Source of the DNA: a virus
Length of the DNA stretch: 38,365 nucleotides
UHGV virus genome: UHGV-0208091
Reading direction: 5' to 3' (one strand)
Shown here one piece after another: positions 1-38,365 of the stretch. Both the position numbers and the translations under genes were made by a program. Below the pieces are notes generated by a model. The model saw only the letters and a program-made list of their open reading frames with translations, did no database searches and was not told the origin of the DNA. Position 1 is the stretch's first letter. Every line of letters starts with the position of its first letter.

Positions 1-270
1 ATGTCATTTACCCTCACGCAAAATTTGAAGTCGTTTCGTACCATCCCATACCTTAATCTCGTTGAGCCGCTTAGTGCCGCGCCTGTAGCTGTGACATATA
101 CCGCAAAAGGGGTCGACAGTATCAACGGGACTACTGCAACGGTGCTGTTTGATACGCAGGCTGAGGGGCTGGAGGCTACAGGCCAGTTCTACTACTCTTT
201 CGAATTTACTGACCTTGCAACAATTTTTGAGGATGCAGAAACGGCACTAAAAAAAGAGATTTCAGAGTAA
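1..270 (+). CDS. hypothetical 89-aa protein inside the invertible segment, translationally coupled to the tailspike (orientation-1 companion gene)
   Basis: ATG at pos 1 sits 6 nt after AGGAG at 38355-38359 (window end) and directly after tailspike stop 38362-38364; open to 270; followed by terminator hairpin. Confidence 0.5.
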   Translation: MSFTLTQNLKSFRTIPYLNLVEPLSAAPVAVTYTAKGVDSINGTTATVLFDTQAEGLEATGQFYYSFEFTDLATIFEDAETALKKEISE

Positions 271-276
271 AATTCA

Positions 277-303
277 CCGCCAGTGTTAAGCTGGCGGATT
301 TTT
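277..303 (+). terminator. rho-independent terminator after ORF 1-270
   Basis: stem CCGCCAG / CTGGCGG with 7-nt loop followed by ATTTTTA. Confidence 0.55.
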
Positions 304-340
304 AATGAACAATAACTCGCGTTGTGATATTTAAACACCA

Positions 341-487
341 TTAGCACTTATGTAATCTGAACGCCAGGAGAATCGAAGTAATCAAAACTACAATCCATGC
401 TTCGGAAGCAAAAACCTGATGCATTACAGTGCCCCAACTAAATATTACGTATGGATAGATAAAATTACCCCACTTCCAGGTAACCAT
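341..487 (-). CDS. small hydrophobic ORF (48 aa, two hydrophobic stretches) downstream of the silent tailspike cassette
   Basis: ATG preceded by GAGGTGAAAA RBS on minus strand; not in the >=60-aa ORF track; would be co-transcribed with cassette 2 after inversion. Confidence 0.25.
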   Translation of the reverse strand: MVTWKWGNFIYPYVIFSWGTVMHQVFASEAWIVVLITSILLAFRLHKC

Positions 488-571
488 TTTTCACCTCATG
501 ATTTTTTTCATAATTAATTCCTTATGTGTAGAGGAACAATTCCGCGACATCTTAACATTTTAATAAATAGT

Positions 572-2236
572 TCAATCGATAGCTTCGATTTCAATGGATA
601 CAGGATACTCGTCATTAATAACGTTTGGTTGTGTGCCATCCAGATGAATATCGAATCCCTGCTTATTTGTTTCGCTAAATGTATTATCAGGAAGATTTCC
701 AGCATTAGTAATAAATACTGGCTCGAAGTTTTTATTTTTAGCAGTTGAGGTACTGGTTGCTAACCCTCCGCTTATAGTGGTTGTTGTCGTTACAGCTGGA
801 ACTGAGTCGGTGCGTGTAGTAATGCCAGCGTTCGCTCCGTTTGGAATATTTACGATATATTGCTGCTGAGAGGTGCTTGATAAATCACACCGGGTAGTAA
901 CTTTATATCTGTGCCATGGCGGCATTCCAACGACAGAGATAACTGAGTTCTGCCCTTTAAATAAAGTCCCCGTTAGTTTGCACTTCATTCCAGGCACGCT
1001 GATTATGCTTTCAGCCGGAAGAGTCGGGTGTGGGGTTGCCACACCGGCAACTGCCTCCGCAATGGCTAACCATGGACGGATTGTTAGCTGTGTAACCCCA
1101 GCAGTCAGGCCTAAACCTGCATTATGTTTATAGTTTTTGCAGTTTAGTTTTACATACCCAGTCAATCCAGCCTTTCTTACAAGGCGGCATGGTTGAGAGC
1201 TTGATGTAATTGGGTTTGCGGCAAAACCGTCATACCGGAAATCAGCAGATCCATCAACGCGCGCTTTATCAGCTGCATAAAGTGCCGTGCTGTTACCGCC
1301 GACCTCCCACCATCCCATCATGTCGATATCGCAGTTATACAGATTATCTGCGCGTGAGCCGTCACCGACATAGATGCCATATGACGCCGCAGTGATTCCG
1401 TGCTGGAAGCCAAAGTTGGAAATGCTGGCGCCATAAAACGAAAGCGTTTGATCGTCAGTAGATGCAGGGTTTGAGTGGAACCAGATCCCACGCTGTGACG
1501 TCCTGACGACGACATTATCTACCCTGATAACTTCAGTCCATCCTTTGTCGTTGTATACATCTATTGCTGTTCCAGTAGTGTAATCTCGAATTACGGAGTC
1601 AAATACTGAACCGCCATAAAAATCTGAGAACCTGACAAACGCAGTAGCAAGGGCGTTCCCAACTGCGGTGAAATTTTTAAGAATTACCGCATTAAACAGA
1701 CTCTGCGCCTGCGCAGTACGCTTAAACGTCAGGGCGACGTTTGCGCCGGTATGGGTAATTACTGGAATGTTGCCCTTCGTTCCCATTCCTGGGCCTTCAA
1801 TGATAAGCCCGTTTGTTGAGTTAATGAACTCCAGCCCACCAACTAACGTATACCCGGCAGGCCCCAGTGACGGGGTTGAGAAGTAACCAATGGAGTTCTT
1901 AATGCAATAGTTAATTGCACTGGTCCAGATGTCGTCAAGAGCAGCACCATCATAAAGACCGAACTCTGTCGCGCAGACTTTGCCGGGGTTTTTTGGGATG
2001 CGTTGCCAGTAGTACTCAGATTGACCTGTCGGCACGCATATATAACCACCATCATCCTCAGCTGAGCCTCGCCTTGAAATAAATTCTCCGCCACCAACGG
2101 GACCGTGAGACATTGCGGCCCAACCGACAGGATGGGCGCGCAATAAAATACTTTGACCTTCATATGAAGGAACAACAGAGCGCAGAGCAGTAAATGATGA
2201 TACCTGCCCCACCAAAGCAAAGCCTTCGCCTGAACC
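572..2236 (-). CDS. promoterless alternative tailspike C-terminal domain cassette (right-handed beta-helix / pectate-lyase-like, depolymerase-like), 554 codons; reading frame continues through the crossover site with no ATG
   Basis: 547-aa ORF (track start is TTG) stays open upstream through 2225-2250 to a stop at 2264-2266; peptide across site NLGSGEGFALVG matches junction motif NLGSGEEGVG of tailspike 36259-38364; beta-helix-like G/N/T-rich repeats. Confidence 0.7.
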   Translation of the reverse strand, partial: GSGEGFALVGQVSSFTALRSVVPSYEGQSILLRAHPVGWAAMSHGPVGGGEFISRRGSAEDDGGYICVPTGQSEYYWQRIPKNPGKVCATEFGLYDGAALDDIWTSAINYCIKNSIGYFSTPSLGPAGYTLVGGLEFINSTNGLIIEGPGMGTKGNIPVITHTGANVALTFKRTAQAQSLFNAVILKNFTAVGNALATAFVRFSDFYGGSVFDSVIRDYTTGTAIDVYNDKGWTEVIRVDNVVVRTSQRGIWFHSNPASTDDQTLSFYGASISNFGFQHGITAASYGIYVGDGSRADNLYNCDIDMMGWWEVGGNSTALYAADKARVDGSADFRYDGFAANPITSSSQPCRLVRKAGLTGYVKLNCKNYKHNAGLGLTAGVTQLTIRPWLAIAEAVAGVATPHPTLPAESIISVPGMKCKLTGTLFKGQNSVISVVGMPPWHRYKVTTRCDLSSTSQQQYIVNIPNGANAGITTRTDSVPAVTTTTTISGGLATSTSTAKNKNFEPVFITNAGNLPDNTFSETNKQGFDIHLDGTQPNVINDEYPVSIEIEAID

Positions 2237-2250
2237 CAGGTTTACGCGAA
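2225..2250. other. gix/hix-like recombination crossover site (right), TTCGCCTGAACC-CA-GGTTTACGCGAA
   Basis: 26-bp imperfect palindrome matching Hin/Gin/Cin site architecture (TTC..AACC-NN-GGTT..AA); lies 44 bp upstream of invertase gene; reverse complement is 24/26 identical to 36668-36693. Confidence 0.8.
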
Positions 2251-2293
2251 CAATATCGGCAATTTACAATCTGCCTTTTCAAAGGGTTGCATA

Positions 2294-2845
2294 ATGTTGA
2301 TTGGCTACGCGCGGGTGTCTACCGGCGATCAAAACCTCGATTTGCAGAAAAACGCGCTGGTTCGCGCAGAATGTGAGCACATTTTCGAGGACACAGCGAG
2401 CGGGAAAAATGCCCGGCGGCCAGGGTTAAAGCGAGCGCTTCGGCGGCTCCGCCCGGGTGATGTGCTGGTGGTCTGGAAACTGGATCGGCTTGGCCGCAGC
2501 GTGCGCGATCTGATTACGCTCGTATCGGAGCTACAGGCGCGCGGGGTAAATTTCCGAAGCCTGACCGATAGCATCGATACCAGTACGCCAGCAGGCCGCT
2601 TTTTCTTCCACGTCATGAGCGCCCTGGCGGAAATGGAGCGCGAGCTGATCGTTGAGCGTACCCGTGCCGGTTTAACCGCTGCGAGGGAGCAGGGGAGAGT
2701 CGGCGGCCGCCGCCGGATAATGACTGAAGAAGTGGTGGAGCGGTGCCGCCGAATGCTGGAGAACGGCGCTACCCGGCAACAGATCGCAGATGTGATTGGG
2801 GTGAATGTGAAGACGCTATATAAGTACCTACCAGCCGCTGTGTAG
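2294..2845 (+). CDS. serine recombinase, DNA invertase of the Hin/Gin/Cin/Pin family
   Basis: 183 aa; GYARVSTGDQNLDLQ catalytic Ser motif, VVWKLDRLGRSV, FFHVMSALAEMERELIVERT, C-terminal HTH; near-collinear with Hin. Confidence 0.95.
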   Translation: MLIGYARVSTGDQNLDLQKNALVRAECEHIFEDTASGKNARRPGLKRALRRLRPGDVLVVWKLDRLGRSVRDLITLVSELQARGVNFRSLTDSIDTSTPAGRFFFHVMSALAEMERELIVERTRAGLTAAREQGRVGGRRRIMTEEVVERCRRMLENGATRQQIADVIGVNVKTLYKYLPAAV

Positions 2846-2855
2846 TCATTGGGAT

Positions 2856-2872
2856 GGGGCATGGATGGGGCA
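2856..2872. repeat. arm-type-like direct repeat GGGGCATGGATGGGGCA (copy 1, embedded in tandem 11-mer GATGGGGCATG x2 at 2853-2874)
   Basis: exact 17-mer repeated at 3063-3079; G-tract rich. Confidence 0.5.
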
Positions 2873-3035
2873 TGGGAAGTCAGTGAAATCCGCCAAATAT
2901 TGCAAACAACGCATGTTGATCACTACATCCAGCCATTGAAAATGGCGCTCCTGGACGATATTTGTCGATTTTTAAAACTAACTCATCACCGTGGTGATAT
3001 GACGAGGGTGACTCACTACCTTGTTGATATATAAG

Positions 3036-3054
3036 GTTATTGTTTTCAAATAAC
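3036..3054. other. candidate attP core: inverted repeat GTTATT-(GTTTTCA)-AATAAC with 7-bp spacer overlapping int stop codon
   Basis: 6-bp inverted repeats flanking a 7-bp spacer, typical of tyrosine-recombinase core sites; immediately at 3' end of int; flanked by repeated 17-mers. Confidence 0.35.
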
Positions 3055-4299
3055 TATGCCTTGGGGCATGGATGGGGCAAAGTCCGATAATTTCTGGTTC
3101 AACATAGCAATCTGATCGCTGTTACTGTCGGCCATCCAGGCGCCGTAGACATTGAAAACCATTTGGGCGCTTGTGTGCCCCATCTGGCTCGCAATGAAGC
3201 TGGGGTTGGCCCCGGCTGAAAGTGACCAGCAGGCATAAGTGTGTCTGGACTGATATGCTTTGCGATGCCTTAAACCAGAGCGTTTCAGCGCCGCCTCCCA
3301 TGAGTCACCAATTGAATCAACCTTGTAATGATAACCAACATTACTGCTTTTTCTGACCAACAAAGGATTGAACACAAATGTACAGTCATGAATAGCCGTT
3401 CGACCATACTCCCGTAGTTGTACCTCAATCTGATACTGCCTTCCCAGTCTGGTCATTTCCGCCTGGTTCCTCAAAGCGCTAATGGCTGGTTTGATCAGAT
3501 GCACGACCCTGTCGGTGCCGGCTTCGGTTTTTGGTAGAGTGAAATCACCAAGTTTCGTATAATTTCGGCGTATGGTCATCGTTCCAGCTTTCAGATCTAT
3601 GTCTTCCCATGCAAGGGAGACCAGCTCACCGTGGCGTAATCCTGTGTAAACCGCAACAGACCACAGGTTTTTCGTTTGCTGATGCGGGCAGGCATCTATG
3701 AAACGAATAAATTCGTCACGAGTGAGTGGATCAGGTTCTATCCTGGCCCTTTTAAGCGGCCTGATTCCGTTAAACGGGTTTTCTCGGATATAACCATTAT
3801 CAGCGGCAAACTGAAACATGCCCGCTATGGTGGTCATGTAATAGTTTACCGTCGCCACGCTCAACCCCTTTCCCCCCGACAACATATCCTTCCTGACATA
3901 CAACAGGTCTTCCCTAGTCACGGATGAGGAAAGCTTGTTTCCGCCAATCCTCAGCAGCATATTCCTTACAACCGATTCATACCGGTCCAGAGCATTAGCG
4001 CAGATCTCCATCCGTTTCAGGTCAAGCCATTTTTCAGACAGCTCTTTCACGGTAATTTCTTTCTTGCCGATACCGAAAATTTTCAGGTTTGGCGAGTTGG
4101 GGAACTGCGCCGCATAGTCAAAGGTCCCCATGCGGATAGCAAAACATACTGACGTTCGCAGATCCCCAGCCACCTTCCTGTTTTTAGCGGTGTCAGGGAC
4201 ACCGAGGTTTTCCCTGACACGCTTACCTTTAAAAATGAACCATATGCGGAGTGATTTTCCGTGGTTCTCAACGCCCGTTGGGTATGATTCTTTACTCAT
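3046..4299 (-). CDS. int: phage integrase, tyrosine recombinase (lambda-Int family)
   Basis: 417 aa; C-terminal R...HxxR...Y catalytic signature (LRHRKAYQSRHTYACW...GHTS...YGAW); N-terminal arm-binding-like domain; position next to att and xis-like gene. Confidence 0.9.
   Translation of the reverse strand: MSKESYPTGVENHGKSLRIWFIFKGKRVRENLGVPDTAKNRKVAGDLRTSVCFAIRMGTFDYAAQFPNSPNLKIFGIGKKEITVKELSEKWLDLKRMEICANALDRYESVVRNMLLRIGGNKLSSSVTREDLLYVRKDMLSGGKGLSVATVNYYMTTIAGMFQFAADNGYIRENPFNGIRPLKRARIEPDPLTRDEFIRFIDACPHQQTKNLWSVAVYTGLRHGELVSLAWEDIDLKAGTMTIRRNYTKLGDFTLPKTEAGTDRVVHLIKPAISALRNQAEMTRLGRQYQIEVQLREYGRTAIHDCTFVFNPLLVRKSSNVGYHYKVDSIGDSWEAALKRSGLRHRKAYQSRHTYACWSLSAGANPSFIASQMGHTSAQMVFNVYGAWMADSNSDQIAMLNQKLSDFAPSMPQGIVI
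3063..3079. repeat. arm-type-like direct repeat GGGGCATGGATGGGGCA (copy 2, inside int 3' end)
   Basis: identical to 2856-2872. Confidence 0.5.
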
Positions 4300-7814: not shown

Positions 7815-7996
7815 AATTACCTCCCGTAGGCTTTACGCAGATAAAGGCCTGCTATTATTTCGTGCCCGTTAGCTGCATAAAGCAGGGCGGTTTTATATGC
7901 GTTGCGGTCAATAATGAAACTCATAACAAATACCTCGCAATATTTAGGGGGCAAGAACCCCCGGCACCCCAAGGCCGTTCTAAACTGGTTTCGTAA

Positions 7997-10339: not shown

Positions 10340-11998
10340 ATGCTTAACATCACACCGAACTTTGCACAGGAACGCGGGCTTAACATGCTGCGGCGCACCT
10401 GGAAGGCGCACGATTCCTTCATGGTCTACGCACCGACCGGAAGCGGAAAAACAGGCCTGGCTGCGTTTATCGCTTCCGGCCTGGTCAGTCGTGGTATGCG
10501 TGTTCTGTTTGTCGCCCCGTATACGATCCTGATTAACCAGACCGCCCAGCGCTTTACAGAATACGGGTTGCCGGAAGACCAGATTAGTTTTATTTGGCGT
10601 GATCACCCGAACTACGACCCTAATCTGCTGATCCAGATTGCGAGTGCTGACACGCTCATTAGGCGTGAATTTCCCAAAAACATCGATCTGCTTATTGTCG
10701 ATGAGGCGCACCTGCGTAAACGCCGTATCCTGAAAGAAATCGAACGGATCACAGCGGAGAAAAAAGCGAAGGTTATCGGTTTATCTGGTACCCCTTTTGC
10801 GCCGTTCCTGGGCCATTACTATCAACACCTGATTAAGCCAACGACGATTGGCGAATTGATCCAGCGTGGTGACCTCAGTAAGTACGAATTTTTCGCCCCA
10901 ACAAAACCAGATCTTAGCGGGGTAGAAACAAAGCCATCTATAGAGTTCGGTACTGATTACGACGAGTCCCAGCTGGCGGAAATCATGTGCGGTTCTGACC
11001 TGGTGGGCGATATCGTCGATAACTGGCTTCGTCATGGTCGTGACCTTCCTACGGTGGCGTTCTGCGTTAACAAGGCTCACGCAAACTTTGTAACCATGCA
11101 GTTTAACAAGGCGGGTATTAATGCTGAGGTCATGGTCGCAGAAACACCCCACGAAGAACGGCAGGTGATGATTCATCGCTTCGAGACTGGCGCCACAAAA
11201 ATAATCGTCAGTGTTGGTGTTTTGGTAGCCGGTTTTGATAGCGATGTTCGCTGCATTATCTACGCCCGGCCGACAAAGAGTGAAATCCGCTGGTTGCAGG
11301 CGCTTGGCCGCGGACTGCGAACTGCACCCGGGAAAGATGCCTGCCTGATTTTTGATCACAGTGGCACTGTGCATCGCCTCGGCTTCCCTGACTCCATCGA
11401 ATACGACGATCTGCCATCCAAAAACGACGGCATGAAAGCGGCCGCTGCCGGCGCAACTAAGGAACGCGAAGAAAAACTTCCGAAAGAATGCCCCGAATGT
11501 CATTTCATGAAGCCATCCGGCGTTTACGTCTGCCCAAAGTGCGGATTTAAACCGCTCGTTGGTCAGGACGTCGAGACTGACGGCACCCGCAACATCAAAA
11601 AAATGAGCAAGCACGAAACGGTTTATACCAAAAGCGACAAGCAGTCCTGGTGGAGTCAGATCAAGTTTTACCAGCGTCATCGTGCGGCGCAGGGGAAACC
11701 TGTCAGCGATGGCTGGTGTGCTCATACCTTTCAGGAGAAATTCGGCGAATGGCCCAACGGCTTAAGCGACTTTCCAATGGAGATCACACCGGAGGTCAGC
11801 AATCACATCAAACACAAACTTATCAAATTTGCTAAACGCCGCGAACGCCTGCAGCAGATGGGGAAGAAACCTGACCAGGATCTATTTCCACCTCCGAGCG
11901 CCAGTATCAAATATGAGCCTCCTGAGGGTAGCGATGGGCAATTAATTATCGAAGCAAAACGAAAGTTTCAGGAAAACGTAAACAGAGTGAGTCAGTGA
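10340..11998 (+). CDS. phage replicative SF2 (DEAD/DEAH) helicase with C-terminal zinc ribbon
   Basis: 552 aa; Walker A APTGSGKT, DEAH box LIVDEAH, motif VI QALGRGLR, CPECHF...CPKCGF zinc ribbon. Confidence 0.85.
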   Translation: MLNITPNFAQERGLNMLRRTWKAHDSFMVYAPTGSGKTGLAAFIASGLVSRGMRVLFVAPYTILINQTAQRFTEYGLPEDQISFIWRDHPNYDPNLLIQIASADTLIRREFPKNIDLLIVDEAHLRKRRILKEIERITAEKKAKVIGLSGTPFAPFLGHYYQHLIKPTTIGELIQRGDLSKYEFFAPTKPDLSGVETKPSIEFGTDYDESQLAEIMCGSDLVGDIVDNWLRHGRDLPTVAFCVNKAHANFVTMQFNKAGINAEVMVAETPHEERQVMIHRFETGATKIIVSVGVLVAGFDSDVRCIIYARPTKSEIRWLQALGRGLRTAPGKDACLIFDHSGTVHRLGFPDSIEYDDLPSKNDGMKAAAAGATKEREEKLPKECPECHFMKPSGVYVCPKCGFKPLVGQDVETDGTRNIKKMSKHETVYTKSDKQSWWSQIKFYQRHRAAQGKPVSDGWCAHTFQEKFGEWPNGLSDFPMEITPEVSNHIKHKLIKFAKRRERLQQMGKKPDQDLFPPPSASIKYEPPEGSDGQLIIEAKRKFQENVNRVSQ

Positions 11999-32736: not shown

Positions 32737-33117
32737 ATGTTCCATTCTGATAAATACCTTTCGGTCAAATGGCTGAAGGGCGGGCGCGTTTATCCTGAGC
32801 TCGACTGTTTCGGCATTATCAATGAAATCCGCGGCGATCTCCTTCTCCCGTTATGGCCGGATTTTTCCGGCGTGACGAAAGATGAGGGAGGGCTCGATCG
32901 TGAGGCCAGGAAGTTTATGAAATCCCTCACACGCTGTGAGCCTTGTATCGGGGCCGGGGTTGCTTGTTATTCAGGATCAACCGTGACGCATGTTGGTATC
33001 GTTGTTTTGCTGGATGGCCAGTTGCAGGTTGCCGAATGTAATCCGGGAACCAATGTCACCTTTCTACCTCTTCCGCGATTTGTCCGTCGGTTTAACCGTG
33101 TGGAGTTCTGGCAATGA
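32737..33117 (+). CDS. tail assembly protein, possible NlpC/P60-like (lambda K-like) domain
   Basis: 126 aa with conserved Cys and His (CFGII...HVGIVV). Confidence 0.4.
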   Translation: MFHSDKYLSVKWLKGGRVYPELDCFGIINEIRGDLLLPLWPDFSGVTKDEGGLDREARKFMKSLTRCEPCIGAGVACYSGSTVTHVGIVVLLDGQLQVAECNPGTNVTFLPLPRFVRRFNRVEFWQ

Positions 33118-36100
33118 CGATAAGAATCTACCCTTCCCGGCTCCCCGGAGAACCGCTTGAAACTCATGAGCACGGCAATATTACGCTGCATCAATGGATG
33201 GTCAGAAATGTTCCTGGGTACAGCCAGGACAGATCGCACCCAGTTGCCGTTGAATTAAATGGCCGCACACTTCCTCCCGATGAGTGGCCGCTTTGCCAGT
33301 TGAGCCCTGACAGTGATGTCAGAATTTATCCTGTTCCCTACGGAACGGGGCTGGAAATTGCTGTCTGGGTTTCTGTTGCGATATCAGCTGCCAGCGCAGC
33401 CTACTCGTTGTTCTTCGGGCCGAAAGTCGATCTCGGTGGTTATTCATCGGGGAGTGGTCGCTCACTTGAGCTTAATCCAGCAAAAGCTAACACGGCAAAA
33501 CTGGGTGACCCGATACGTGAGGTGTTTGGTCGATGCCGCATCTATCCTGATTATCTGGTGCAGCCGGTTACCCGTTTTGACCCCGATGATCCAACGCGAA
33601 TGACGGTCGAAATGTTTCTTTGTGTCGGGCAGGGGAGATTTTCGTTTACGGGAGGAGATAAACGGATTGGAGAAACCCCGGCAGCCTCGCTGGGTGATGG
33701 TTTCAGCGATAAGGTGTACCAGCCAGGAGAAGACGTATCTTCTGATCCGCGAAGTGAAAACTGGTTCAACTCGACAGAAGTCGGCGGAACATCAAGCGGA
33801 ACAGGGCTGGATATGGCCCAGACCTCACCTGATTCCGACGATATTATCGCTGACAGCATGACGGTTTCTGGTGCATCCGTAACCTTTACAGGCCTTGATA
33901 CGGATGATGGTGACGATGACGACGAGGACGATAATTCTCTCCCGGACAGCTGGATAACGGGGGCCATAGTTGAAATTAAGGCGCCGACAAATTATCTGAT
34001 CTCCACCTCTTCTGGTTACAGTGTTTTTGCCAGCTCATTGCTTACCGAACTTGCTCCCGTAGCGGGTATGCCGGTGACGCTGAGTTTCAACAGTGTTGAT
34101 TATGACCTCGTCATTGCGTCCTATACCCCGGGTCAGGATGCTGTGCCTGGCGAGGGTGGCAGTGCAGCAAAAATTCAGGCCAGTGCGGCTCCCGTCACCT
34201 ACGATTTTTCGAACAGCTCCAGTACGTTCATGATCACATGGCAGGGCACCACCTATACGGTGTCGCTGGTAGCGAACTACATCTCGATGTCGGGACTGCT
34301 GGCGGCTATCACCGAGGGGCTCACTGGCTCCGGCCTGGTCGCACGGGACAACGGCGGTACCGTACTGATAACCGAGGCGGCCAGTCCGTTCGTTGGTGGG
34401 GCAATCACATCCTCCTCGCTGCCTGCAGCCGTTTTCGGTGATGCCCCGGTTTACACCTCCGGCACGGCATCAACCGGCGGCAGCCCGGCGGTAACGGCAA
34501 ACGTGACGCTTGCGTATAACAGCACTACGGGAACCGCATTCTCGGGCATGCCTGAAGGTGTGCAACGGCTTTCACTGGCTCACCGCGGGAATGAGTACCA
34601 GATCGTCTCTGCCGACGGCACAACGGCAACAGTGGTGCGCCTGGTTAATGGGTCCGTTGATGAGTCGTGGCCGGGATTCACCGCCAGGACGATGATCGAC
34701 TATGAGGCCACTGGTCTTAACGACACGCTGAGCTGGCTGGGGCCGTTCCTGGTTTGCCCTGAAAATGAGACCGTGGATATGTTCGAGGTGAATTTCTCTT
34801 TCCCGAACGGTATCTGCGGCTTTGACAGTAAGGGGAAAAAACGCATTCGCCATGTTGAGTGGGAGATTCAGTATCGCGTCTACGGTTCCGGATCGGGATG
34901 GGTGAGTCACCAGGGCGAGTACGCGCTGAAAAACATCAACGGGTTAGGTTTCACTGAGCGGATCACCCTCAGTTCTCCGGGGCTGGTGGAAGTTCGCTGT
35001 CGTCGACGCAATGAGCAGGGCAGTAATAACTCGCGCGACAATATGTACTGGCAGGCTTTGAGAGGGAGGCTTCTGGCAAGACCGGTATCCTACTCAGGTG
35101 TAACAACCTGGGCAATTACCGTTGAAACCGGAGGGAAGCTGGCGGCACAGTCTGACAGGCGCGTCAGCGTGGTCGCTACCCGTGAATATGAGGGGGGAGG
35201 TAACAGAACTATAAGCGGCGCATTCCGTCATGTGGCAAATAGTCTTGGATTTAATGCTAATCAGCTCGACACCTCTGCAATAAATGCTCTTGAAACTGCC
35301 TGGTGGACGCCGAGGGGAGAATATTTTGACTATGAGGCAAGCAGCGACAGTGCTTCAGCGAAAGATATTTTCGACAAAATCACCGAAGCAGGCATGAGCT
35401 ATTTTTTGCTATCAGATGGGCTCTTATCTGCCGGGCGCGAAGGTATCAAAACCTGGACCGGGATCATCACTCCCCAGGATACGGTAGAGGAAATGCAGAC
35501 ATCATTCAGGGCCCCTTCTGATGATGATTATGATGGTGTTGACGTCACATATATTAATCCGGTTACCTGGGCGGAGGAAATCGTTCAGTGTCGGACAGCT
35601 GATAATCCTGTGCCACGCAAAGTGGAGTCGTACTCGCTGGGCATTGTAATGACTGCAGATCGTGCTTACCGGATAGGTATGCGCAGGCTCATGAAATATC
35701 TGCACCAGCGCAGGACCTATGAATGCACAACTGAGCTTCTTGGCTGGTGCTATCAGTTTGGCGATCACATCATTCTTTCTGATGATATTCCGACGGGTAA
35801 AACAATCAGCTGTCTGATAGAAGGCGTGACATTCGATGATGAAGTTATCACGTTAACAGTCACTGAGCTTCTTGACTGGAGCTATGCTAATCCGCGCTGC
35901 TGGATTCAGTTTCAGGGGGGGCGGCCGTCGACTCGTTTGCTAACGCCGACACGTGTCGATGACTTCACCCTTACTATACCGTACAACGACGACCTGCACC
36001 CGGAAGACTGGATTATGGATGATCCGGATGTTGAATTACCTCGCCTGTTGTTTTGTGACAGTGAGAAGGGGGCGCGGCACGGTATCGTTCAGGAAATTGT

Positions 36101-36197
36101 CCCGTCTGATGACTGTACTTGCCAGGTCACAGCCCCGGAATATAAAGAAATCTTTTACGCATACGACGACGCTACATACCCTGGCGACGTAGCTTAG
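33114..36197 (+). CDS. tail tip / host specificity protein (lambda J-like, possibly I-J fusion)
   Basis: 1027 aa; N-terminal hydrophobic segment, acidic run DTDDGDDDDEDD; position. Confidence 0.7.
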   Translation: MTIRIYPSRLPGEPLETHEHGNITLHQWMVRNVPGYSQDRSHPVAVELNGRTLPPDEWPLCQLSPDSDVRIYPVPYGTGLEIAVWVSVAISAASAAYSLFFGPKVDLGGYSSGSGRSLELNPAKANTAKLGDPIREVFGRCRIYPDYLVQPVTRFDPDDPTRMTVEMFLCVGQGRFSFTGGDKRIGETPAASLGDGFSDKVYQPGEDVSSDPRSENWFNSTEVGGTSSGTGLDMAQTSPDSDDIIADSMTVSGASVTFTGLDTDDGDDDDEDDNSLPDSWITGAIVEIKAPTNYLISTSSGYSVFASSLLTELAPVAGMPVTLSFNSVDYDLVIASYTPGQDAVPGEGGSAAKIQASAAPVTYDFSNSSSTFMITWQGTTYTVSLVANYISMSGLLAAITEGLTGSGLVARDNGGTVLITEAASPFVGGAITSSSLPAAVFGDAPVYTSGTASTGGSPAVTANVTLAYNSTTGTAFSGMPEGVQRLSLAHRGNEYQIVSADGTTATVVRLVNGSVDESWPGFTARTMIDYEATGLNDTLSWLGPFLVCPENETVDMFEVNFSFPNGICGFDSKGKKRIRHVEWEIQYRVYGSGSGWVSHQGEYALKNINGLGFTERITLSSPGLVEVRCRRRNEQGSNNSRDNMYWQALRGRLLARPVSYSGVTTWAITVETGGKLAAQSDRRVSVVATREYEGGGNRTISGAFRHVANSLGFNANQLDTSAINALETAWWTPRGEYFDYEASSDSASAKDIFDKITEAGMSYFLLSDGLLSAGREGIKTWTGIITPQDTVEEMQTSFRAPSDDDYDGVDVTYINPVTWAEEIVQCRTADNPVPRKVESYSLGIVMTADRAYRIGMRRLMKYLHQRRTYECTTELLGWCYQFGDHIILSDDIPTGKTISCLIEGVTFDDEVITLTVTELLDWSYANPRCWIQFQGGRPSTRLLTPTRVDDFTLTIPYNDDLHPEDWIMDDPDVELPRLLFCDSEKGARHGIVQEIVPSDDCTCQVTAPEYKEIFYAYDDATYPGDVA

Positions 36198-36218
36198 CAA
36201 TTTCAAAAAAATCAATTC

Positions 36219-36246
36219 ACCCGCTTCGGCGGGTTTTTTCATTTTT
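36219..36246 (+). terminator. rho-independent terminator after J-like gene
   Basis: ACCCGC-TTCG-GCGGGT then TTTTTCATTTTT. Confidence 0.6.
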
Positions 36247-36258
36247 GGAGCACAATGT

Positions 36259-38364
36259 ATGGCCAACATCGAAAAACTTGGCTCGTCATCACCAGAGGTA
36301 TTGCTTAAGAATGCAACTAACCTCGATAAGTTAGTCAATGGCCGGGAATCGGAATCATTACCTGATCGCTTTGGTGTACTGCGCAAAACCTGGCACGGCA
36401 TGGAGATGATCTTCAACCGTTTTATAGACTACATCACTGGTCGCGGCGAGCAGGCAGTTGCAGCTATCGGCTGGCAGGAGCTTGGCAACTGGGCTGTTGG
36501 TCTGGCTGTAGATAATCGCCAGCAGATCGTCTACTACAATGGCTCCTGGTACAAATACCTTGGTGAGCTTGAACACGTCATTGCCGGAGATTCTCCTGAG
36601 AACGATGGCGGTGTGTGGTCGGCTGCAAACCCCACAGGGAAATGGTCGAACATCGGTGACGCGGCTCTTCGCTCAAACCTGGGTTCAGGCGAAGAGGGGG
36701 TGGGGGATGCGTTACTTGCTGTCAAACAACCATACACAGGGGCTGTAGCCAGGACTCAGCACGACAAAAACTGGGACAGTATTAACCTTCTGGATTTTGT
36801 ATACGCCACGGACGTTGTAGATGGTTTTGTTGATTATGGTCTTGGGCTTAACCGCGCCATTGCCGCTATGAGTTCTTTAGGTTCAACCAGCGTAGAGCAT
36901 ATTCCCAGACGCAGAATCAATCTCCCCGCAGGTCTGCTGCACATCAAAACGAAAGTCGAACTTTCTTTTGGCCCCTTCGCAATGTGCGGCGAGGGGATAT
37001 TCCAGACCATCTTTGCTATACATCCCAGCGCAGCTTCAGATGATGATTATCTGTTTGACTTCAGCTCAGCCGGCTGGGATTCAACAGGAAGGGTCAGAAT
37101 ATCCGAACTTTATCTGAGTAACTTCTCAGTGCTTGGGGAAACTGCGAGCTGGATTCGTAAAAGAATCTTTAAATTCTACGGCGTCGGCTGGGATTTTGCG
37201 ATAGAGAACGTGCAGGTCTGGTCGCCTCCACTTTCGTCATTCGATATGACGGATGTCATGGACGGGGTATTTAATCAGGTGAGGATAAACTCCGGAGGCC
37301 GGTTCCTCACTGCAGGTTCAGAAGTAACGCATCAGATTAACATGCTGAATCAGTATGATAACTGTAATGCAATAAGATACATGAGCTGCCATTTTGAAAA
37401 CAACTATTCAGGCGTCTCTTATATTCGTGGTGGGTCAAACAACATTCTCTTTGGCGGAATGTGTAAATTTGAAAATAACAGCAGAAACAACCTTGTTCCT
37501 GTTAACCAGATTTACGGGTCCACCTCAGATAGTGTCAAATTTGAAAATATCTTCGTAAGCCACCCGGCCCATATCACAGTTTACTGGCTGGACAGCAATG
37601 GCCGCCACGTATCAATTCGCGGAGGCTCACTTATGAGCCCGTCGGATTTAGGTGGATATACCGGTCTGAGGTGGTTCCGCATCCACCGTACAAACTGGGC
37701 GAGTGCGACTGCGTGCGTTCAGCTGGTCGCTGATATTGACATGATGCATGTGGACGGGTACGGATATAACGGGGCGAATCAGCTCTCACCGTTTGATTTT
37801 GAGGGCGAGGTTATTTTCCGGGCAAAGGCTATTCGCCTGGCGCGACCAAATACCTTCATGTACATCAACTGGAACTGCAAAATTGATATTGAAAATCTGA
37901 CGCTGTTAGGTGCTGTTACCAGCGATTATCAGACCTCACTGTTTAATGTTGCCGCGTCATCAGTAAAGGCAGACGTAAACGTTGATAAATATAACGGCAG
38001 CGTTGTTGGAACTGTTTATGTCAATCCAGCAATGACCACCGCATCGCGCCGGCAGTCAATAATCAATGTGAGGGGTAAATCACTTCAGTCTTCATCACTG
38101 ACGCTCTCTGAGGGTACAGACCCTCTTGGTTATGATGAGTCCTGGACGTGGAATGCCTCGGGAAATGTAGCCAACATCGGATACTGCCATACAGGGAAGC
38201 GAATGGTTGTCAGATGTGCAGACACATCAAATTGCCTGATTGTCGGCGGTAATATTTTCCTTCCGGGTGGTGCGGTAACGGCTGCATGTACGATAACCCT
38301 GATGGCGATGAACACATCGTTCCGTCAGGGCTGGGTCGAAGTTTCACGGGTAGCAGGAGTCTAA
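36259..38364 (+). CDS. tailspike: N-terminal anchor (aa 1-141) + C-terminal right-handed beta-helix enzymatic domain (orientation 1 of invertible segment)
   Basis: 701 aa; beta-helix-like Asn/Gly-rich repeats; contains crossover site at codons 137-145. Confidence 0.8.
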   Translation: MANIEKLGSSSPEVLLKNATNLDKLVNGRESESLPDRFGVLRKTWHGMEMIFNRFIDYITGRGEQAVAAIGWQELGNWAVGLAVDNRQQIVYYNGSWYKYLGELEHVIAGDSPENDGGVWSAANPTGKWSNIGDAALRSNLGSGEEGVGDALLAVKQPYTGAVARTQHDKNWDSINLLDFVYATDVVDGFVDYGLGLNRAIAAMSSLGSTSVEHIPRRRINLPAGLLHIKTKVELSFGPFAMCGEGIFQTIFAIHPSAASDDDYLFDFSSAGWDSTGRVRISELYLSNFSVLGETASWIRKRIFKFYGVGWDFAIENVQVWSPPLSSFDMTDVMDGVFNQVRINSGGRFLTAGSEVTHQINMLNQYDNCNAIRYMSCHFENNYSGVSYIRGGSNNILFGGMCKFENNSRNNLVPVNQIYGSTSDSVKFENIFVSHPAHITVYWLDSNGRHVSIRGGSLMSPSDLGGYTGLRWFRIHRTNWASATACVQLVADIDMMHVDGYGYNGANQLSPFDFEGEVIFRAKAIRLARPNTFMYINWNCKIDIENLTLLGAVTSDYQTSLFNVAASSVKADVNVDKYNGSVVGTVYVNPAMTTASRRQSIINVRGKSLQSSSLTLSEGTDPLGYDESWTWNASGNVANIGYCHTGKRMVVRCADTSNCLIVGGNIFLPGGAVTAACTITLMAMNTSFRQGWVEVSRVAGV
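36668..36693. other. gix/hix-like crossover site (left), TTCGCTCAAACC-TG-GGTTCAGGCGAA, inverted relative to 2225-2250
   Basis: 24/26 identical to reverse complement of 2225-2250, identical central dinucleotide, in identical codon phase. Confidence 0.8.
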
Positions 38365-38365
38365 A

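Follow-up and report, generated by a model that had tools for sequence, protein, structure and literature searches.

A probable inversion switch of the Mu G type in the tailspike gene of a temperate Klebsiella pneumoniae siphovirus

Known inversion systems and the tailspike locus

DNA inversion switches acting on tail fibres are textbook knowledge from Mu, P1, e14 and P2-like phages. In the G segment of phages Mu and D108, a constant N-terminal part of the fibre lies outside the invertible DNA and two variable C-terminal parts converge inside it, each followed by a small gene, with a terminator between the two; the recombination sites are 26 base pairs (bp) long with a 2-bp core, and one of them is located just upstream of the invertase gene. 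The annotated order in D108 is constant S, gix, variable S, U, two terminators, U', S', gix and gin. Here we describe a locus of the same kind in the viral genome UHGV-0208091, a stretch of 38,365 nucleotides that was analysed at its full length and is referred to as the window; it represents a temperate Klebsiella pneumoniae phage, and nearly all of its DNA matches are Klebsiella phages and prophages. The locus encodes an invertase about 66% identical to that of Mu and D108, and the order of its elements (tailspike anchor, site, receptor-binding domain A, an open reading frame (ORF) of 89 amino acids (aa), terminator, a 48-aa ORF, receptor-binding domain B, site, invertase gene) parallels that of D108, in agreement with the original prediction made for this DNA, which had recognised in it the architecture of the Mu G segment. 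We put at roughly 85% the probability that the locus functions as an inversion switch of the Mu G or P1 C type, located in the tailspike gene of a temperate K. pneumoniae siphovirus.

The locus also differs from the Mu and D108 system in several respects. The swapped modules are depolymerase-like tailspike domains of about 555 aa, whereas those of Mu and D108 are slender fibre tips; neither the 89-aa nor the 48-aa ORF is related to U or U'; the phage is a Klebsiella siphovirus with a J-type tail; and the site reads TTCGC..AAACC TG GGTTCA..CGAA, compared with TTCCTGTAAACC GA GGTTTTAGATAA in Mu and D108. The C segment of P1 and D6 (Cin), the P segment of e14 (Pin) and the Fin system of lambdoid coliphages share with our locus the invertase subfamily (68.7% identity to D6 Cin) and an alternating tail fibre specificity, but their cargo consists of fibre genes, and in D6 the invertase is located on the other side of the segment. 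Invertases are present in coliphages annotated as lambdoid or related, namely mEp237, mEpX1 and LLS ('Fin'). The Hin/hix system of Salmonella uses a Fis-dependent serine invertase of the same family, acting on 26-bp sites and encoded beside one of them. In that system a promoter is flipped and genes are turned on or off, whereas here a fixed promoter and 5' coding part would receive alternative 3' parts. The multi-tailspike Klebsiella phages (the Menlow group, PhiK64-1 and the KP32 group) carry receptor-binding domains of the same kind, gp048 of Menlow having 88% nucleotide identity to domain A, together with the same junction motif LRxNL(G/A/S)S, and they face the same problem of capsule diversity (PMC6872550). 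These phages, however, display all of their spikes together on branched anchors, whereas in the present locus there is one attachment point, at which the cargo would be alternated by inversion.

In the literature that was searched, with most subscription journals lying outside its coverage, no report was found of an inversion switch acting on depolymerase-type tailspike domains, or of one in Klebsiella. The terms inversion, invertase and invertible are absent in this sense from four papers on depolymerases and receptor-binding proteins of Klebsiella phages and prophages (PMC13123978, PMC12491483, PMC13385381 and PMC6872550), and 'inversion' is used in unrelated senses only in a study of Klebsiella prophages and capsule serotype (PMC7784688). 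An invertible tailspike or depolymerase is likewise unmentioned in the genome report of phage KPP5665-2, in a survey of 40 Klebsiella prophages and in a preprint on hyper-variability hotspots of phages. The mechanism is classical; the cargo, the abundance in a priority pathogen and the consequences for predicting capsule specificity from prophages are not.

The invertible segment and its two orientations

The tailspike of the window is a protein of 701 aa, encoded on the plus strand at positions 36259-38364. Its codons for LRSNLGSGE contain a 26-bp sequence named site L (36668-36693, plus strand; TTCGCTCAAACC TG GGTTCAGGCGAA), and a second sequence, site R, is located at 2225-2250 on the minus strand, its reverse complement being TTCGCGTAAACC TG GGTTCAGGCGAA. 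Both sites are laid out 12-2-12 like gix and hix, face in opposite directions, share an identical asymmetric TG core and form an exact inverted repeat of 20 bp. A pattern search allowing up to three mismatches found exactly these two sites in the 38 kb and none in 100 shuffles, and site R can be aligned with D108 gix. The site at 2225-2250 had been pointed out in the original prediction and is real; its partner in the tailspike gene had been missed.

Also missed was the circular permutation of the window, in which base 38365 joins base 1. In the lytic phages Carvaje and KpV17Sklif, the DNA matching window positions 36667-38365 runs directly into the match to positions 1-304, and the same adjacency of 38365 and 1 is observed in two prophage loci (L004 and L005). 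Because of this permutation, the two sites bracket about 3.9 kb and not 34 kb, and the tailspike gene, which closes the window, lies directly upstream of the region at its start, where the second cassette and the invertase gene had been noticed. Measured from core to core, the segment comprises 3,922 bp, from position 36681 through the end and the start of the window to position 2237, and it contains, in this order, domain A, the 89-aa ORF, a bidirectional terminator, the 48-aa ORF and domain B. The constant N-terminal anchor of the tailspike (aa 1-136; 36259-36667, plus strand) lies outside the segment.

An exchange at the core is predicted to yield an in-frame protein of 695 aa, composed of anchor residues 1-141 and domain B, and proteins of exactly 695 aa with 96-99% identity are annotated in many K. 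pneumoniae genomes. Both orientations, which the original prediction had expected, were found, between isolates, next to an identical invertase protein and in near-identical DNA. A look-up of the exact invertase protein gave ten genomic places, and domain A is expressed in five of them (L008, L011, L012, L015 and L016) and domain B in the other five (L007, L009, L010, L013 and L014); domain A is also expressed in L004 and L005, which were obtained with the exact tailspike protein. L007, L013 and L014 represent the predicted inverted state: the J-type gene and the gene of the 695-aa tailspike come first, then the 48-aa ORF (plus strand), then, both on the minus strand, the 89-aa ORF and a 554-aa domain A lacking the anchor, and finally the invertase gene. 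The segments of L005 (domain A expressed) and L013 (domain B expressed) differ at 2 of 3,896 positions (99.95% identity) and are inverted relative to each other.

The comparison of the window with L013 and L014 locates the break points. Identity is 100% over 5,036 bp upstream of site L, with the anchor DNA included, and over 774 bp from site R onward, whereas the intervening 3,950 bp, including the sites, align only in reverse. The break points of the inversion are therefore the sites themselves, and the outer half-sites remain with the flanks, as expected for an exchange at the core. Homology to the inverted-state loci, and also to the myovirus loci described below, starts or stops exactly at site L.

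The identical invertase and the A and B cassettes are found on three tail backbones, all of them beside the same chromosomal flank: a J-type siphovirus backbone (L007, L013 and L014), a myovirus backbone with Baseplate_J and Wedge1 (L008, L010, L011, L012 and L015) and a Mu-like myovirus backbone (L009). Both the A-expressing and the B-expressing state are observed on the siphovirus backbone and on the baseplate-type myovirus backbone. A single chromosome carries several tailspikes of this type in at least one genome, and in another an insertion sequence interrupts the segment (see below); contig breaks at such loci were considered as a sign of mixed orientation and set aside, since they could have these other causes.

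Two fusion proteins (P0001 and P0003) were considered as evidence of inversion and rejected, because they are fixed fusions without an invertase. In a fixed variant of the locus (L002 and L003, 8001-12986), the same J gene and an anchor-B fusion are present without a second cassette and without an invertase, and a Bac_transf sugar transferase gene on the opposite strand and an RVT_1 reverse transcriptase gene stand in their place. A separate observation concerns the deposited Klebsiella prophage ST101-KPC2phi6.3 (MK416017.1), positions 1-888 of which match window positions 35800-36687, so that the record terminates exactly within site L. The inversion site may thus be a place where assemblies, or the calling of prophage boundaries, break off.

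The invertase, the cassettes and their relatives

The serine DNA invertase proposed at 2294-2845 is confirmed. The plus-strand ORF encodes a protein of 183 aa of the Gin/Cin/Hin/Pin group, with the catalytic serine in YARVSTGDQ, and matches the Pfam families Resolvase (PF00239, E-value 2e-50) and HTH_7 (PF02796) as well as the DNA invertase family PHROG 125 (E-value 2e-86). Residues 1-181 align with the Mu Gin structures 4M6F and 3UJ3 (E-value 1e-71), YARVSTGDQ corresponding to YVRVSTNDQ, and the identity to D108 Gin is 65.7%. The ATG is located 43 bp past site R, one less than the 44 bp originally stated. A candidate sigma-70-like promoter of the invertase gene (2241-2270, plus strand) consists of TTTACG and TACAAT with an 18-nucleotide spacer, overlaps the outer half of site R and ends 23 nucleotides before the ATG; it is the sole promoter-like match in positions 1-3100, where 4.7 would be expected by chance, and is a consensus match only. 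Within the gene, a candidate Fis-binding element of an enhancer is found at 2364-2378 on the plus strand (GCGCAGAATGTGAGC). It fits GNNYRNNWNNYRNNC perfectly at gene positions 71-85, and a perfect match is present at the same position in D108 gin, D6 cin and the gene of KPP5665-2, which is suggestive only. Separately, DNA of the phages BUCT708 and BUCT709, reported from Stenotrophomonas maltophilia, is 81% identical to the invertase gene and the adjacent site region (window 2223-2814); this match suggests either a passage of the module between genera or an incorrect host assignment.

The expressed C-terminal part of the tailspike, domain A (36694-38364, plus strand), has 84-89% nucleotide identity to the distal tailspike parts of the lytic Klebsiella phages HMGUkp5, Menlow (gp048), Carvaje and KpV17Sklif. 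An AlphaFold2 model of it, built with 30 homologues, is confident only centrally, with block means of the predicted local distance difference test score (pLDDT) mostly between 65 and 90 at residues 170-570. This central region is all-beta, with short repeated strands, and the structures that Foldseek places closest to it are the right-handed beta-helix tailspikes of Sf6, CBA120 (TSP3) and HK620 and related polysaccharide-active enzymes (E-value about 6e-6, template modelling scores 0.35-0.53).

Domain B (572-2224, minus strand) is, in the orientation of the window, a silent cassette without promoter or ATG. As originally described, its frame has no ATG of its own and stays open through the crossover site: the minus-strand ORF at 572-2215 can start only at a TTG, and the frame is open upstream to position 2263 and reads VRVNLGSGEGFALVG across site R. 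Domain B matches the tail fibre family PHROG 9823 (E-value 3e-239) and has 75-81% nucleotide identity to tailspikes of KP591P1, 0507-KN2-1 (orf97), SopranoGao and AltoGao, and anchor-B fusion proteins carry the Pfam tag PF27114 'Phage_tail_beta' in their source database; it is certainly a tailspike receptor-binding module. The beta-helix body that had been proposed finds support in the model and fold matches of the expressed domain A, but not in domain B, for which a confident fold was not obtained (see below). Domain B was also considered as a homologue of the KN2 depolymerase of 0507-KN2-1, and this was rejected, since the match is to orf97 and not to orf96, which we take to be the characterised enzyme. 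The two domains have no detectable similarity to each other (best BLASTP E-value 0.76), as had been stated for the two C-terminal parts. Searches of Pfam and NCBIfam gave no match for domain A, domain B, the 89-aa ORF or the 48-aa ORF.

The anchor and the domains are also found in other combinations. Proteins in the database that match the anchor at 93-100% identity do so over just 21-23% of the query and continue into a wide variety of C-terminal domains, and domains of the A and B types are joined elsewhere to differing anchors (T7-type, P22 head-binding and Tail_spike_N). The peptide LR(Q/S)NL(G/A/S)S at the junction of anchor and domain is common to tailspikes of unrelated Klebsiella phages, and the DNA encoding it is a degenerate version of the site in lytic phages and a full 12-2-12 site in prophages. 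Since the homology of the window to lytic-phage tailspikes, and that between siphovirus and myovirus prophages with the same cassettes, begins at the site, the site coincides with a natural module boundary.

Each domain is accompanied by a small ORF. The 89-aa ORF (1-270, plus strand) starts two bases past the stop codon of domain A and is likely an accessory of cassette A; it accompanies the domain-A homologue in Carvaje (gp55) and Menlow (gp049) and belongs to PHROG 7836, a family of unknown function. The 48-aa hydrophobic ORF (341-487, minus strand), which has two hydrophobic stretches and lies downstream of domain B, is likely an accessory of cassette B; it had no family match in Pfam, NCBIfam or PHROG and is co-inherited with the domain-B homologue in the lytic phage KP591P1 (KP591P1_00006; the match covers window positions 346-2250). 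Between these convergent units, at 277-297, both strands carry a hairpin resembling an intrinsic terminator (CCGCCAG-loop-CTGGCGG), with a T-rich tail on each strand. In L004 (CP055451.1), an insertion sequence encoding a 326-aa DDE_Tnp_1/DUF772 transposase is present between the 89-aa and 48-aa ORFs (10520-11667 of the locus, corresponding to about window position 344).

A scan of viral contigs revealed at least 597 stretches encoding relatives of the invertase, and the closest 80 (88-96% identical; L024-L103) were examined. The 26-bp site is located exactly 43 bp before the invertase ATG in all 80, and an inverted partner site was found in 72 of them in a first pass and, in a later consensus pass, in 74 of 81 loci (the 80 and the window). 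The invertase ORF is intact in 79 of the 80. Loss of the catalytic serine in natural isolates, named in the original prediction as evidence that would speak against a switch, was not seen, the motif YARVSTG(D/E)Q being kept in every one of the 80 relatives.

Two classes can be distinguished. In class I (22 of the 80, and the window) the core is TG, the distal site lies inside the tailspike gene at the same joint peptide, and the segments measure 3.5-4.8 kb; TG was found in 21/21 distal and 23/23 proximal sites examined. In class II (58 of the 80, including the isolated phage KPP5665-2) the core is CT and the segments measure 5.1-7.9 kb. The class II sites, found at 1473-1498 and 7963-7988 in KPP5665-2 (L001), precede the ribosome-binding site and ATG of complete genes for receptor-binding proteins by about 21 bp, so that entire genes would be swapped under a fixed upstream promoter.

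With the window and the loci from the invertase and tailspike look-ups included, 31 class I loci contain both sites. At 60% identity, their cassettes can be sorted into about 24 groups, which are paired in different ways. Within this set the A/B pair occurs with A expressed eight times and B expressed eight times, and a second pair, T4/T8, was found both ways round (L067 and L093). In 30 of these 31 loci, the frame of the silent cassette is uninterrupted for 500-700 aa. Judged from their reading frames, such intact silent cassettes would be hard to explain without periodic expression.

Among the neighbouring genes of the window, a J-type tail tip protein of 1027 aa is encoded at 33114-36197, and a tyrosine integrase at 3046-4299 on the minus strand. 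When the window was compared with the right end of integrated prophages, identity was found to end at position 2997, about 20 bp inside the 3' end of a chromosomal LysR-family gene. This places the attachment site between the invertase and integrase genes (2846-3045, especially about 2978-2997), and the phage thus carries a copy of the end of the LysR-family gene.

Proposed mechanism, alternatives and consequences

Because the invertase is 65.7% and 68.7% identical to D108 Gin and D6 Cin, respectively, the Gin/Hin pathway is the most likely mechanism, by family membership and established knowledge. Along this pathway, dimers of the 183-aa invertase would bind the two inverted 26-bp sites and pair them, a Fis-bound enhancer aiding assembly on supercoiled DNA; both strands would be cut at the 2-bp TG core, the subunits would rotate by 180 degrees together with the strands that they hold, and the DNA would be rejoined with the 3.9-kb segment flipped. 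As the tailspike promoter, the start codon and the 136-aa anchor are outside the segment, the anchor would be identical in both orientations and would continue in frame, by way of the peptide NLGSGE common to the two junctions, into one or the other of two unrelated receptor-binding domains (about 555 aa each). The small ORF downstream of each domain would move along with it, and the hairpin terminator would stop read-through into the antisense cassette. A population of lysogens would then release two kinds of virion, which probably recognise, and probably degrade, different capsular polysaccharides. This difference in capsule tropism is suggested by analogy with Mu and P1 and by the known role of such receptor-binding domains, which set capsule tropism in Klebsiella phages (PMC6872550). 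Catalysis by this invertase, continued switching within a culture, a requirement for Fis and the enhancer and a difference in capsule specificity between the two domains are inferences, and so are depolymerase activity and capsule-type switching.

Several observations weigh against a working switch of this kind. The orientation differences are between isolates and not within one culture, and the loci L002 and L003 indicate that a fixed anchor-B state is also viable. A scan with the Fis consensus gave no convincing second Fis site at the expected spacing, and the enhancer evidence is weak. Concerning the cargo, an AlphaFold2 model of the anchor-B fusion, built with 19 close homologues, had a pLDDT of 34 and did not yield the fold of domain B, and a profile of domain B built with 30 distant homologues reaches the solved depolymerases of Klebsiella and Acinetobacter phages (7VZ3, 7LZJ, 5W6P and 8IQ9) only over the first 100-150 residues. 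As the match in 0507-KN2-1 is orf97 and not orf96, neither domain can be given a capsule type, and the searches brought up no close homologue characterised by experiment. Neither the 89-aa nor the 48-aa ORF has a Caudo_TAP or U-type match in Pfam, NCBIfam or the functional PHROG families, and their likeness to U and U' is in position only.

Of the alternatives, the one that survives best, which we still consider unlikely, is that the switch is real and that its main role is another one: a choice between capsule and O-antigen receptors, the supply of soluble enzyme, or service as a docking point for the exchange of cassettes. Neither domain has an assigned specificity, the cassette pairings differ by locus with identity dropping exactly at the sites, and the TTG at 2215, preceded at six bases by a weak AAGG, could permit a low level of translation of domain B without its anchor. 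On the other hand, no minus-strand promoter-like match is present upstream of domain B, and both domains are homologous to distal tailspike parts of lytic Klebsiella phages, in which such proteins set capsule tropism (PMC6872550).

A frozen relic is considerably less probable. Here inversion would have occurred occasionally in the past, the switch would now be dead, the minus-strand cassette would be decaying, and the invertase would be inactive or otherwise used. The fixed fusions without invertase, the restriction of the orientation data to comparisons between isolates, the insertion sequence inside the segment of L004 and the broken cassettes seen in a few loci (L057, L090 and L098) would fit such a state. 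It is contradicted by opposite orientations in segments that differ at two positions, by the occurrence of the same pair both ways round in about equal numbers and of both states on siphovirus and baseplate-type myovirus backbones, and by the preservation of the open silent cassettes, the invertase ORF with its motif and the 43-bp spacing at the frequencies given above.

That the flips are due to RecA-dependent homologous recombination between short inverted repeats, or to assembly errors, and not to the invertase, is hardly credible: the sites do share 20 bp of exact identity, and short-read assemblers can misorient segments bounded by inverted repeats, but 20 bp is a poor substrate for homologous recombination, both states are present in finished chromosomes (CP055451.1 in one state, CP141550.1 and CP149899.1 in the other), and the repeats are built as serine invertases require, with a 12-2-12 layout and a matching asymmetric core, and always lie 43 bp from a conserved Gin-like gene. 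A shufflon, which is based on the tyrosine recombinase Rci and multiple sfx sites, was rejected because the recombinase is of the serine type and the window contains only two sites.

Beside the inversion switch in the tailspike gene, we put forward as a tentative and rather doubtful proposal that the 26-bp site may serve as a portable docking point, at which the invertase or site-focused recombination would capture and reassort cassettes among prophages of different tail types and infecting lytic phages. The proposal starts from the position of the site in the codons for LRxNLGSGE, the joint peptide between anchor and receptor-binding domain in many Klebsiella tailspikes. Several findings would fit this proposal: the fall in identity from 100% to 97% coincides exactly with the sites; three unrelated tail backbones carry the same invertase and cassettes, with homology starting from the site; about 24 cassette types occur in varying pairs; and degenerate sites are present in the lytic-phage homologues. 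If it were true, the prophages would form a common pool in which capsule specificities are reshuffled.

In K. pneumoniae, phage infection is limited above all by capsule type, and prophage tailspikes are mined to predict capsule specificity and to find therapeutic depolymerases. A silent cassette that lacks the start codon and the anchor is liable to be called by annotation pipelines as a truncated or hypothetical protein, or to be given a spurious start. If the inversion switch operates as proposed, the orientation seen in an assembly is a snapshot and not a fixed property, which can mislead models linking the capsule type of a lysogen to the tailspike of its prophage. The arrangement would also offer a natural and compact design for engineering phages with receptor-binding domains that can be switched at a defined joint. 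The system appears to be common, given at least 597 invertase relatives in one viral contig collection, and about a quarter of the closest 80 have the intragenic arrangement, the rest swapping whole genes. For the biology of these phages, such a switch would mean that one prophage encodes two specificities, one of which is expressed at a time.

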